The notes beneath the pieces were generated by a model that was not told where the DNA came from, did not search any database, and saw only the letters and a program-made list of their open reading frames with translations. A program made the translations under genes and the position numbers. A DNA stretch of 64,000 nt, taken from assembly GCA_963796285.1 (NCBI GenBank), contig CAWCKW010000012.1:1728001-1792000 (forward strand), read 5' to 3'. Below, piece after piece: positions 36,651-55,269 of this stretch. This DNA comes from Nitrospirota bacterium (lineage in GTDB: Bacteria; Nitrospirota; UBA9217). Each line of letters begins with the position of its first letter. Positions within the stretch are counted from its first letter, which is position 1.

Positions 36651-36724
36651 TGGTTCGGGGACAGGGATTCGAACCCCGATAAAAGGCTTCAAAGGCCTCT
36701 GTCCTACCATTAGACGATCCCCGA
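36651..36724 (-). tRNA. tRNA-Gln(UUG)
   Basis: TCGGGGATCGTCTAATGGTAGGACAGAGGCC-T-TTG-AAGCCTTTTATCGGGGTTCGAATCCCTGTCCCCGAACCA: D-loop TGGTA, TTCGAATCC, encoded CCA; usual position upstream of prs. Confidence 0.96.
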
Positions 36725-52771: not shown

Positions 52772-54298
52772 TCACAGCATCTCCAGCGCCTTCTTGAGCG
52801 CTTCGGCCTTCTGGAGGGTCTCGAAATATTCCTGCTCGGGAACGGAATCCGCAACGATCCCGGCCCCGACCTGAATGTGTGCCATACCGTCCTTTACCAC
52901 GAACGTCCTGATGATGATGTTCAGGTCCATGTCGCCGGCGTTCGACAGGTATCCGATGGAACCGGTATAAGGTCCGCGCGCCACGGGTTCAAGTTCATCG
53001 ATGATCTCCATGCACCGAACCTTGGGCACGCCGGTGATCGTCCCTCCCGGGAAAACGGCACGCACCAGGTCGAAGGCGTCCCGCCCCGGCGCCAGCACCC
53101 CCCTGACATTCGAGACGATATGAATAACATGGGAGTAATCCTCCACCACCATCATTTCATCGACCTGGACCGTACCGTACTCGCACACCCTGCCGAGGTC
53201 GTTCCGCTCGAGATCGAGCAGCATGATGTGTTCCGCCCGCTCCTTTTCGTTCATCAGGAGCTCCGCGGAAAGCGCGCTCGTTTCCGCGCCATTCCTTCCC
53301 CTTCTGCGAGTACCCGCTATCGGCCTCGTATCGGCGATATTTCTGTGGAGGCGAACCAGACGCTCGGGGGAAGAACTCACGAGCTGCAGGTCGCCGAAAT
53401 CGAGGTACGCTGCAAAGGGCGACGGATTGATGGTCCGCAGGATCTTATATAAACGAAGCGGGTCCGCATTGTTCATCGATGTCGAGAGCCGCTGGGACAG
53501 GTTCGCCTGATAGATGTCCCCTGCCGCGATATATTCCTTGCATTTCACGACCATTGACTCGAACTCGTCTTTCGTCATATTCGGTGTGAGGCTGAAACGC
53601 TGTTGAGCGTTTTTTTCAGGGAACAGTACGTCGCTCGTGTTGTCCTTTGCCGCGAACTTCGAACCCAGGGCCAAAAGCCTTGCCGCGGCCTCATCATAGA
53701 GCCTGCCCCACTGGTCCGGTTCCGGTTTCCGGAAGCCCATCTCCTGCTCCCGGGCGCCCGGATTGACGATCACCCACGCCTTGTCCAGGATATGATCAAA
53801 GGCAATTACCATATCCACAAACACGAAATACGCCTCGGGAATGTCGATATCGACCGGCGCCCGGCGCGGTAGTTTCTCGATCTGGTGCGCAAAATCGTAG
53901 GAAAAGAACCCCACAGCCCCTCCGGTGAAAGGCGGCAGACCGTCGGTCCGCGTTGTCCGGTAATTGGCAAGAAGCTCACGCAGTTTCACAAGCGGCTTCC
54001 GGTTCATGGACGCGCGCCTGCCGTATTTGCCCAAAGGCGTAGACGGCAGGCTGAGTTCCACGACATCCCCGCGGGACTTGAAAATAAGGTAGGGGTCCGC
54101 CGTAACAAACGAATACCGCCCGATCCTGTCGTTCATCCGTGCGCTTTCGAGAAGCACAGGATAGCCTTCCCCTCTGAGCGCCTCAAGCGCCGCAAGCGGT
54201 GTGAGCCCCGGCAGGTCGAGCTCGGCGGAAAGAGGTAGTATCTTCCCGGATTGAAGGGCTTCGAGGAATTCGTTTTTTGAGGGCTTGATCGTATCCAT
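52772..54298 (-). CDS. Chorismate-binding enzyme (anthranilate synthase component I / PabB family)
   Basis: LLESA, GDIYQANLS, NPSPF, SSSPE, PIAGT, AEHIMLLDLERND and FPGGTITGVPK motifs. Confidence 0.93.
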   Translation of the reverse strand: MDTIKPSKNEFLEALQSGKILPLSAELDLPGLTPLAALEALRGEGYPVLLESARMNDRIGRYSFVTADPYLIFKSRGDVVELSLPSTPLGKYGRRASMNRKPLVKLRELLANYRTTRTDGLPPFTGGAVGFFSYDFAHQIEKLPRRAPVDIDIPEAYFVFVDMVIAFDHILDKAWVIVNPGAREQEMGFRKPEPDQWGRLYDEAAARLLALGSKFAAKDNTSDVLFPEKNAQQRFSLTPNMTKDEFESMVVKCKEYIAAGDIYQANLSQRLSTSMNNADPLRLYKILRTINPSPFAAYLDFGDLQLVSSSPERLVRLHRNIADTRPIAGTRRRGRNGAETSALSAELLMNEKERAEHIMLLDLERNDLGRVCEYGTVQVDEMMVVEDYSHVIHIVSNVRGVLAPGRDAFDLVRAVFPGGTITGVPKVRCMEIIDELEPVARGPYTGSIGYLSNAGDMDLNIIIRTFVVKDGMAHIQVGAGIVADSVPEQEYFETLQKAEALKKALEML

Positions 54299-54382
54299 GG
54301 AAAGGTGGGGAAATTCTAAAGGCAATTCAGACGCGGGTCAAGATAATTCTCGAAAAAAAATTCCGCACAGTGGCGCAGAAAG

Positions 54383-54424
54383 TGGTATATTATAAATGAA
54401 TAAAGAATCATTGGTCTTTCTAAA
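54383..54424 (+). promoter_or_regulatory. Putative extended -10 promoter and boxA-like sequence upstream of the ncRNA
   Basis: TG-G-TATATT at 54383-54391; TGGTCTTTCTAAA at 54412-54424. Confidence 0.45.
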
Positions 54425-54435
54425 AAAGGTACATT

Positions 54436-54746
54436 GGGCGTTGCCGGACCATCACCGACTAGGTGTAGAGATGATAACCCGTTTTGAGGGGAATCAAGCA
54501 CCGTGCTGGATGGAGAGCCGAGACCAGAAAGAAGGCTGCAAGTTGAGCTGTCGTTCACTGGTTGTTTCATAGGCTGCTGTAAAGCACGGAAGAGCCGAAA
54601 GCCCCGAAGCCGAAGGAGATGGCGGGAAGAAAGGTACAATGAGCTTCACAGGGTCTGCTGAGCAGAGCCATAGAAGCACCCATTGGAATCCCCGCAGAGG
54701 CTCCCCGGCTCAACGGAATATCAGTAACGGTCCGCAGGCAACGCCT
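54436..54746 (+). ncRNA. Unclassified ~310-nt structured non-coding RNA
   Basis: The 5' and 3' ends pair (GGCGTTGCC/GGCAACGCC, GGACC/GGTCC) and about ten further nested helices are visible. A U-tract follows. No credible ORF overlaps it. Confidence 0.7.
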
Positions 54747-54876
54747 TTTTTATTTCTCAAAGTATCCACTGCAGTAACCTCGCCCCCTATACGGAAATCG
54801 TCTCTATCGCACACTATCTTCCTCTCGACAAAATAGAAAAAATAATTTAAACTGCTTCTTCATAAGGAGACCAGGT

Positions 54877-55269
54877 ATGAACCATGCCATGGACGTTAAG
54901 ATCTATTACGAGGACACGGATTGCGGCGGAGTTGTGTACTACGCCAACTATCTTCGCTATATGGAACGGGCGCGGACCGAGTACCTGGCATCCAGGGGCT
55001 ACGAGGTCAAAAAACTGATGGACGAGGGCACGATCTTCATGGTGCTCCGCGTCGAGATCGACTACAGATCTCCGGCACGGTACGGCGATACGATCGAGAT
55101 CGAGACCAGGGTGTCGGAGGTCTCGCGCGTCACCATGATCTTTCATCACACCATGAAGGAAAAAACATCGGGCAGGGTGTTCGTTGAGTGCATGGCCAAG
55201 CTTGTCTACGTAGACCCCACTGGCAGACCCAAGCGCCTGCCTGACGAGTATGTGGAAAAAGTGAAGTGA
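54877..55269 (+). CDS. YbgC/FadM-family acyl-CoA thioesterase
   Basis: YYEDTDCGGVVYYANYLRYMERAR hot-dog fold motif. Confidence 0.92.
   Translation: MNHAMDVKIYYEDTDCGGVVYYANYLRYMERARTEYLASRGYEVKKLMDEGTIFMVLRVEIDYRSPARYGDTIEIETRVSEVSRVTMIFHHTMKEKTSGRVFVECMAKLVYVDPTGRPKRLPDEYVEKVK

Follow-up and report, generated by a model that had tools for sequence, protein, structure and literature searches.

Identification of an uncatalogued structured RNA

We found that positions 54436-54746 on the plus strand of a 64,000-nucleotide (nt) stretch of DNA from a Nitrospirota bacterium (GenBank assembly GCA_963796285.1, contig CAWCKW010000012.1, positions 1,728,001 to 1,792,000 of the forward strand; hereafter the window) hold the gene of an uncatalogued structured RNA of about 310 nt. 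Judged by its sequence and structure, the element is a new RNA class. The role that we favour for it, with a probability of roughly 0.55-0.6, is that of a trans-acting stable RNA that binds protein, as suggested by its size, pairing and conservation pattern. A first-pass annotation made from the letters of the window had described a standalone stable non-coding RNA, either of a new class or a very divergent relative of 6S RNA or of the large signal recognition particle (SRP) RNA. The first of these descriptions agreed with the blank Rfam result, the covariation and the RNA contigs reported below, and the second lost ground to the canonical genes present elsewhere in the genome.

The window was searched on both strands with the 4227 families of Rfam 15 at gathering thresholds, and the sole match was a transfer RNA (tRNA) at 36654-36724. 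When E values of up to 10 were admitted, the region 54250-54900 gave six Rfam matches, all with E of at least 0.9 and far below the gathering scores; these fell in unrelated families, for example eukaryotic long non-coding RNA and small nucleolar RNA models. A known class was thus not found by Rfam on either strand. In particular, neither at gathering thresholds nor at E values of up to 10 did the element match the models of ribonuclease P (RNase P) RNA (RF00010/RF00011), of SRP RNA (RF00169/RF01854), the helix 8 motif included, or of transfer-messenger RNA (tmRNA; RF00023). At E values of up to 10, 54250-54900 also gave no match to 6S RNA (RF00013) and none to T-box or other leaders. The group I intron model (RF00028) was equally without a match at that limit, and the element is intergenic and not within a host gene, although some of its conserved strands may resemble core elements of such introns. 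Covariance models of raiA, OLE, ROOL, GOLLD, HEARO and manA had no match on either strand. No Y RNA model matched 54250-54900, and the TROVE domain of Ro proteins (PF05731) was not found in the source genome (G000; 3.58 Mb, 96.2% complete), in which the element is single-copy.

Canonical genes of four stable RNAs were located elsewhere in the same genome: RNase P RNA at G000:C6:158852-159228 (270.4 bits), 6S RNA at G000:C12:1524125-1524304 (103.5 bits), small SRP RNA at G000:C6:125956-126054 (77.6 bits) and tmRNA at G000:C3:54722-55075 (191.8 bits). The 6S, SRP and RNase P genes that the first-pass annotation had suggested looking for were therefore all found. In literature listings and the opening parts of abstracts, a scope that leaves most subscription journals outside, we found no description of such an RNA from Nitrospira.

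Overall structure of the RNA

The overall fold has the shape of a Y, in which a trunk leads into a three-way junction that carries arm A (about 120 nt) and arm B (about 100 nt). About 65% of the bases are paired, and the features are collected in Table 1. Most of the helices noticed in the first-pass annotation recurred in the individual folds of 28 homologues and were confirmed by direct reading of the sequence and by mapping. In the trunk, these were the stems 54437-45/54737-45 and 54446-50/54729-33 and the helices TGATA/TATCA and CCGTT/AACGG. In the two branches, they were CCGTGCT 54501-07/AGCACGG 54583-89 with the enclosed AGCC/GGCT and ACCAG/CTGGT, and CAATG 54637-41/CATTG 54681-85 with GCTTC/GAAGC and TCTGC/GCAGA. 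The threefold occurrence of AGAGCC and the run TTTTTTATTT after the closing stem were likewise read in the sequence as described. Two of the earlier trunk pairings gave way. GGGGA 54488-92 had been paired with TCCCC 54702-06; in the consensus, GGGG 54488-91 pairs with CCCC 54602-05 and closes arm A, and TCCCC 54702-06 is part of arm B, where GGA 54615-17 pairs with TCC 54702-04. The small GAG/CTC pairing was absent from the consensus.

The strongest conservation was found in the internal loops, the junction strands and the two apical modules. The P1 strands GGCGUUGCC and GGCAACGCC were invariant or nearly so both in 28 sequences and in a set of 49 non-redundant copies, the mean column identity of the latter being 62%. 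As judged from these sequences, the invariance of P1 exceeds what pairing alone demands. One pair of the P1/P1' region did covary in the 28-sequence alignment (A1), the column pair 12/367 being AU in 16 sequences and GC in 11. Upon inspection of A1 by eye, P10 was richly covarying, and P3 was replaced in other genera by a U/A-rich helix in place of UGAUA/UAUCA, which the MAFFT columns capture in part.

Table 1. Features of the RNA gene and of the adjoining trpE-type gene, in window coordinates.
Feature	Position	Strand	Basis
TrpE-type gene (anthranilate synthase component I family), divergent neighbour	52772..54325	-	Pfam Chorismate_bind 2.9e-91, Anth_synt_I_N 6.1e-33
trpE promoter, TTGACC, 17 nt, TAGAAT (predicted)	54313..54341	-	scan 10/12 matches; block GGTCAAGAYAATTCT conserved in genus
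A8 tract, about 25 nt upstream of the -10	54353..54360	+	A-rich run kept in 8/8 genus members (alignment A4)
Extended -10, TGGTATATT	54383..54391	+	T, G, TATA, T invariant in 8 genus members
5' leader, about 38 nt of transcript from putative start to P1	54392..54435	+	length from -10 position
boxA-like motif GGTCTTTCTAAAA, genus variant of family consensus YGNTCTTTGAAA	54413..54425	+	conserved
RNA body, about 311 nt, first to last base of closing stem P1	54436..54746	+	full-length homologues, consensus structure, RNA-run contigs within 54436-54742
5' strands of P1 and P1'	54436..54450	+	partners 54737-46 and 54729-33
Trunk P1	54436-45/54737-46	+	closing stem
Trunk P1'	54446-50/54729-33	+	mapped pairing
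P2 side hairpin, UCACC/GGUGU	54452..54466	+	both sides change in 3/5 pairs; 87.9% of cells paired
5' strands of P3 and P4, entering three-way junction	54472..54483	+	mapped pairing
P3, TGATA/TATCA	54472-76/54719-23	+	mapped pairing
P4, CCGTT/AACGG	54479-83/54712-16	+	pair counts on A1 directly support P4
Arm A: P5 GGGG/CCCC (54488-91/54602-05), conserved internal loops, P6-P9	54488..54605	+	34/39 pairs change on both sides
Arm A apical 7-nt loop, AAGUUGA	54540-46	+	letters nearly invariant
Arm B: P10 AGCCG/CGGCU (54608-12/54706-10), P11-P15	54608..54710	+	helices 10-18 of pair counting on A1
Arm B apical module, GCUUC-ACA-GGgUCUG...CAGAgCC-RCA-GAAGC	54643-54677	+	near-invariant
3' strands of P4, P3, P1' and P1	54712..54746	+	mapped pairing
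U-run TTTTTTATTT directly after P1	54746..54755	+	at least 5 T right after P1 in 47/49 copies

Covariation, folding energy and strand

Covariation among the homologues was strong. For the 28 sequences of A1 (mean column identity 63%), the RNAalifold consensus contained 59 pairs, 31 of which showed compensatory changes. Additionally, we projected the minimum free energy (MFE) fold of each sequence onto A1 and retained the 99 nested pairs common to at least 10 of the 28. In this structure 86.5% of the 2721 cells were paired, compared with 33-43% when the 3' partners were slid by one to three columns; both sides changed in 58 of the 99 pairs, compared with 27-37 in the slid versions; and the covariation score was 0.249, compared with at most 0.090. 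None of 500 column shuffles matched any of the observed pairing or covariation measures. In reading these values, it should be kept in mind that the 99-pair structure was derived from the same sequences, which favours it over its slid versions, and that the sequences of A1 are mutually related.

The plus strand of 54430-54760 folded with an MFE of -125 kcal/mol (z = -4.21), and none of 100 dinucleotide shuffles was as good, the outcome opposite to the one that the first-pass annotation had named as speaking against a structured RNA. The minus strand reached -121.1 kcal/mol (z = -4.25). As the two strands fold nearly equally well, the energy is evidence of structure and not of strand. Folding the 49 sequences both ways gave 92 shared pairs and G-U to A-C counts of 325:186 for the plus strand, and 67 shared pairs and counts of 177:167 for the minus strand; the lower MFE lay on the plus strand in 38 sequences. 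Each indicator of strand is moderate by itself; taken together, the T-run, the TG of the extended -10, the orientation of the boxA-like motif and the folding of both strands favour the plus strand.

A long-range contact within the RNA was also considered. The arm A apical loop AAGUUGAG was complementary to CUCAAC in 87.6% of cells, and the would-be pairing showed no covariation: 441 of 500 shuffles reached the observed value and both sides changed in just one pair, so that a pseudoknot between the loop and CUCAAC was not supported.

Distribution of the RNA

The RNA is specific to the Nitrospiraceae and occurs in all genomes of this family that were searched with a model of its core. A BLAST search of the element against 60 relatives gave matches in 29 of the 36 other family genomes, at full length down to 66% identity, and in none of 24 genomes from 11 other families of the phylum. 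The core covariance model (R1) runs from P4 to P4 (window positions 54477-54719; 243 positions, 66 pairs), with P1-P3 outside the model. It found the RNA in all 27 other family genomes, with E values from 1.7e-24 to 1.7e-62, and in none of the 123 genomes of 21 other Nitrospirota families, a search that was run with the stricter filters of Infernal, by which weak matches could be lost.

Two patterns were carried through one genome of each of 185,579 species. The closing-stem pattern, which asks for both P1 strands 275-305 nt apart and four T, gave 80 loci, and 43 of these were confirmed with an nhmmer profile built from the first alignment; the records of all 43 are titled Nitrospirota, Nitrospirae, Nitrospiria or Nitrospiraceae. 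The pattern of the arm B apical module occurred in 24 stretches, again all in Nitrospirota records. We rejected the 37 closing-stem loci that had no nhmmer match as chance matches in GC-rich coding genes; 34 of them lie inside a frame that is open over at least 99% of the match, and Rfam, run on 16 of the 37, found no RNA family at the match and just two unrelated tRNAs. Among 2.9 million viral contigs, the closing-stem pattern had no match.

Presence of the RNA in RNA libraries

Expression was addressed through RNA libraries, and the contigs of these libraries cover the element. In ten RNA-library rows, 14-21% of the words sampled from 801 nt around the element were present, and the Logan contigs of four RNA runs (X1, X5, X6 and X7) were compared with 54000-55200. 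In X5, X6 and X7, metatranscriptomes that come from three studies, all listed pieces on the element lay within 54436-54742, and one X5 contig started exactly at 54436. The summed word depth was up to 381 in X5, 212,923 in X6 and 174 in X7; X6 also contained a low-depth contig (about 3) on the downstream thioesterase gene. These data are good evidence of the element in RNA preparations, where it takes the form of short, deep contigs, and they give a hint of a discrete RNA species. At the fragment ends 54446, 54723 and 54728, we noticed letters that resemble Illumina adapters. They would place the first mate on the minus strand in three of three informative cases; with dUTP-stranded libraries, and not otherwise, such an orientation would be consistent with an RNA of the plus strand.

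Promoter, leader and terminator

The first-pass annotation had placed an extended -10 and a boxA-like motif upstream of the RNA, and both proved to be present and conserved. Of the 49 non-redundant copies, 47 have TGNTAYANT in the 130 nt that precede P1. Its distance to P1 was 45-72 nt in 45 of them; of the other two, a tandem second copy has 22 nt and the locus L039 has 94 nt. The A8 tract further upstream may be an UP-like element of this promoter. From the position of the -10, we infer that the transcript of the main copy begins with a leader of about 38 nt in this genome (across the family, the distance from the -10 to P1 is 45-72 nt). This leader would later be removed and be absent from the mature RNA. 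The leader lacks RNA-contig cover, which is a hint only, missing cover not being evidence.

Within 60 nt upstream of P1, TCTTT was present in 47 of the 49 copies; it lay 17-28 nt before P1 in 44 of these 47, and 46 had G at -2. The pattern ..G.TCTTT[G]AAA was found in 47 of the 49 copies, and the window copy carries a one-step variant of it. In the genus of the window, the motif read GRTCTTTCTAAA in seven of eight members, which makes it an imperfect boxA. The leader of the 16S gene and the 16S-23S spacer are the places where boxA is expected in ribosomal RNA (rRNA) operons. The source genome has GGTCTTTGAAAAC upstream of its single 16S gene, downstream of two promoter-like sites, and GTTCTTTGACAAC in the 16S-23S spacer, after tRNA-Ile and tRNA-Ala. 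The family consensus YGNTCTTTGAAA matches both of these boxA sequences of the same genome. It is also close to the gamma-proteobacterial boxA consensus given as GYTCTTTAANA by Baniulyte et al. (PMC5725501), whose survey of Nus targets, by its authors' account, left non-coding RNAs out of the search.

Directly after P1, a run of T follows in nearly all copies (Table 1), and P1 together with this U-run would form an intrinsic terminator. A simple terminator scanner misses it because the 'loop' is the whole RNA.

Similar motifs were observed beside another stable RNA. The boxA-like GATCTTTGAA or GTTCTTTGAT lies upstream of the RNase P RNA gene, and in the source genome (locus L001, G000:C6) GATCTTTGAA stands about 12 nt before the 5' end at 158852. 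The strict form K-N-TCTTT-R-A was present upstream of RNase P RNA in 6 of 24 full-length family loci (L001, L176, L179, L183, L185 and L167), and GTTCTTTCACA or similar was seen by eye in further loci. The 6S, SRP and tmRNA genes of the source genome showed no boxA-like motif within the 150 nt that precede them. Leaders of the boxA type may, to judge by these motifs, serve several stable-RNA genes in Nitrospiraceae. The loose pattern KNTCTTTGAMAA was 2-5 times commoner than its reversed control in four of five genomes (G008, G018, G034, G120 and G097); in G034 it occurred 72 times against 20 for the reversed pattern, and such an excess may consist of boxA-like sites or come from a composition or codon effect.

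Genomic context and paralogues

The RNA gene stands alone, given that the gene downstream of it varies and that some genomes have tandem arrays or dispersed paralogues, the latter beside unrelated neighbours. The first-pass annotation had described its surroundings as a trpE/pabB-ybgC region. A TrpE-type gene does lie divergently on one side, and a 4HBT thioesterase gene followed by a methyltransferase gene lies downstream on the plus strand; the ybgC-tol context is not that of this locus, as no Tol-Pal gene comes after the thioesterase. In a tblastn survey of a family sample, 29 of 30 loci had TrpE in divergent orientation to the RNA, and when two overlapping sets were combined, TrpE stood beside the RNA in 71 of 73 loci, both misses being from one genome. 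The thioesterase follows the RNA in only 11 of the 30 family loci.

Some genomes carry tandem arrays of the RNA beside trpE, with three copies in one species (L037/L066) and two in L020/L081 and in G010. Each tandem copy has its own T-run, and the distal copies lack the TCTTT leader motif and are strongly diverged, scoring 57-58 bits with the nhmmer profile compared with 189-289 bits for the others. Additionally, weak dispersed paralogues (35-60 bits) were found in two genera. In four of the five that were examined, the same -10 motif lies 6-8 nt before GGCG; the dispersed paralogues lack a leader, their T-run is poorer and another hairpin follows downstream. The five dispersed paralogues share no partner gene among their neighbours, which include genes for adenine deaminase, DUF899, peptidase S9, DsrC-like and LpxD-like proteins and a fragment with an IS605 OrfB helix-turn-helix (HTH).

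Comparison with known stable RNAs

We compared the element with known systems and found partial similarities to several of them, with differences in each case. Like 6S RNA, it would be an abundant, stable, trans-acting RNA with its own promoter, in which the 5' end pairs with the 3' end and so closes the molecule; if the leader is read correctly, it would also be processed from a longer precursor, and a protein-sequestering mode is plausible for it. We take the 6S-like Ms1 RNA of mycobacteria to be a further comparison of this kind. The element differs from 6S RNA in size (about 310 nt compared with about 185 nt) and in architecture, having a three-way junction with two arms where 6S RNA is a rod with a central bubble. 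With raiA, OLE, ROOL and GOLLD it shares the properties of a large, intricate, lineage-restricted, standalone and covarying RNA that is abundant in RNA samples, the functions of those RNAs having been unknown at their discovery. Its range is much narrower than theirs, being one Nitrospirota family, and it has a boxA-type leader like that of the rRNA operon of its host; to our knowledge, such a leader is undescribed for raiA, OLE, ROOL or GOLLD.

The RNase P RNA of type A (RF00010) is likewise a stable multi-helix RNA, of 300-400 nt, and in the source genome it has a boxA-like motif upstream; the true gene is the one located elsewhere, and the element has no RF00010 match. Besides the leader, for which the boxA leader of rRNA operons with its Nus-factor antitermination (rrnTAC) is a close counterpart, the element resembles an rRNA operon in that a stem links the two flanks of the mature RNA, 5' and 3', as in rRNA processing stems. 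It differs in that its product is a non-ribosomal RNA of 310 nt with no match to an rRNA model, and in that the window copy carries the deviant TCTTTCTAAA.

Proposed role and alternative explanations

We favour a trans-acting, protein-binding RNA because of the size of the element, its extensive pairing, its invariant P1 and a conservation that lies in loops, junctions and apical modules and not in an open seed. Transcription would start about 38 nt upstream of P1 from the extended -10 promoter, and the boxA-type element of the leader, like that of the host rRNA leader, would recruit NusB/NusE, which could protect and chaperone the untranslated transcript. The leader would then be cut off at the foot of P1. 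P1 and the U-run would end transcription, and the closed stem would seal both ends of the RNA and so confer stability. The conserved loops and the junction would offer binding surfaces for one or more proteins; the partner might be a regulatory target, sequestered as by 6S or CsrB, or the protein of a stable ribonucleoprotein, and the RNA would not act through pairing of a single-stranded seed with messenger RNAs (mRNAs). A CsrB-like sponge, considered as a candidate, was set aside, there being about nine GGA in the window copy and none in a hairpin loop.

Several points weigh against this proposal. Both its function and its partner protein are hypothetical, and no neighbouring gene is consistent except trpE, which encodes an enzyme. 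The invariant sequence of P1 could reflect some other cause that we have not considered. In folding, the minus strand comes close to the plus strand. As for the leader, the paralogues that lack it indicate that boxA is not essential to the RNA itself, the boxA-like motif of the genus deviates from the rRNA boxA (TCTTTCTAAA compared with TCTTTGAAA), and the loose pattern KNTCTTTGAMAA is common, with 16-72 occurrences per genome compared with 3-23 for the reversed control in five genomes; this pattern is too degenerate to confine boxA to stable-RNA genes. The run X1 contains one contig of 2277 nt, at a depth of 11, that spans the whole region; it carries 70 other letters, is thus from a relative and may be DNA. 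Finally, the library contigs show neither strand, true ends nor level, and the runs were chosen with this stretch, so that missing cover of the flanks is not evidence.

A bolder version of the protein-binding proposal is possible, and we hold it tentatively. The element might be the founding member of a new class of large structured RNA that is core and highly expressed in all Nitrospiraceae, that passes through the rRNA-type boxA/Nus pathway and that has a role unlike those of 6S, SRP, RNase P and tmRNA, for example as a ribosome- or polymerase-associated factor suited to slow, starvation-prone growth, or as an RNA-only machine.

An unlikely alternative, and still the foremost of those that remain, is a small regulatory RNA (sRNA) that acts by base pairing. 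Conserved unpaired stretches, for instance the loop AAGUUGA or purine-rich strands of the junction, would be the sites of pairing with mRNAs, which may belong to amino-acid or tryptophan metabolism, and the U-tail would bind an Hfq-like chaperone. Genes of sRNAs are often kept beside a gene with which they are co-regulated, and the conserved divergent trpE fits that habit; the terminator hairpin with U-run at the end of the element and the tandem and dispersed paralogues of some genomes also recall many sRNA families. With about 310 nt and about 99 conserved pairs, however, the element is far bigger and more structured than typical seed-type sRNAs, and its conservation is spread across many loops and junctions instead of being gathered in one accessible seed.

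We consider it slightly less probable again that the RNA acts alone, either catalytically as a ribozyme or by self-assembly in the manner of the large orphan RNAs ROOL, GOLLD, OLE or raiA, with its junction and loops making tertiary or intermolecular contacts. A complex multi-helix fold with highly conserved unpaired nucleotides would suit such an RNA, as would its restriction to one lineage and its high summed depth in RNA libraries, and self-cleavage could explain why the mature 5' end appears at the first base of P1 while the apparent start lies about 38 nt upstream. The paralogues, however, start at P1 without a leader, so that cleavage is unneeded; the complementarity of the AAGUUGA loop to CUCAAC, which might have been a tertiary contact, is the one that most shuffles reproduced; and no ribozyme or large-RNA model of Rfam matched.

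It is very improbable that the element is a highly divergent 6S, large SRP, RNase P, tmRNA or Y RNA that the Rfam models missed. Its size, abundance, closing stem and stable-RNA-like gene layout are similar to theirs; against this stand the four canonical genes, all well above their cut-offs, the absence of any sub-threshold match to these classes at E values of up to 10, the absence of a Ro/TROVE protein from a genome that is 96% complete, and a Y-shaped junction unlike the 6S rod. A cis-acting leader, either on the minus strand as a T-box-like or Trp-sensing 5' leader of trpE or on the plus strand as a riboswitch of the thioesterase operon, is hardly credible. In its favour, almost every genome has trpE immediately after the element when the minus strand is read, the folding of that strand is as good as that of the plus strand and a terminator-like hairpin stands between the element and trpE. 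Against it, a good trpE promoter lies downstream of that hairpin, which is unconserved even in the genus, the strand indicators favour the plus strand, no T-box or other leader matched, the RNA-run contigs stop at P1 with none reaching trpE (a hint only), the paralogues adjoin unrelated genes, the plus-strand downstream gene is not constant, and the stem of the terminator is the one that closes the entire fold, without an antiterminator as its alternative.

The Nitrospiraceae, which dominate nitrite oxidation and complete ammonia oxidation (comammox) worldwide, perform both processes in soils, waters and wastewater plants; they grow slowly and their genetics are difficult. The presence of the RNA in every family genome searched, together with its high depth in environmental RNA, makes it likely that it belongs to a core physiology that annotation has missed. 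The RNA offers a lineage-specific marker that can be read in metatranscriptomes, adds a large structured RNA class backed by covariation and expression evidence, and would be a case of a non-ribosomal RNA gene that apparently uses a leader of the rRNA boxA type.

Neighbouring genes

The open reading frame (ORF) of the trpE-type gene is listed with a TTG start at 54325, and an ATG at 54298 is the likelier start. Its promoter lies back to back with that of the RNA. Between the RNA gene and this promoter, the minus strand carries the terminator-like hairpin TTCTGCGCCACTGTGCGGAA followed by T8 (54380-54353). The stem of the hairpin is not conserved in the genus, where the A/T run alone is kept. 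It is probably a chance feature; alternatively, the hairpin may keep antisense transcription away from trpE. No trp genes follow trpE, and the next ORFs have AAA_23/SMC_N-like domains. Near one dispersed paralogue (genome G034), an ORF of 201 amino acids with an IS605 OrfB-type HTH (3.3e-14) lies about 400 nt downstream (L161, 3652-4257, plus strand); it was found in this one genome and is probably incidental. The -10 of the trpE promoter, TAGAAT at 54319-54314, stands about 8-10 nt before the likely ATG, and no Shine-Dalgarno sequence was seen, a spacing with which trpE may be translated from a nearly leaderless mRNA.

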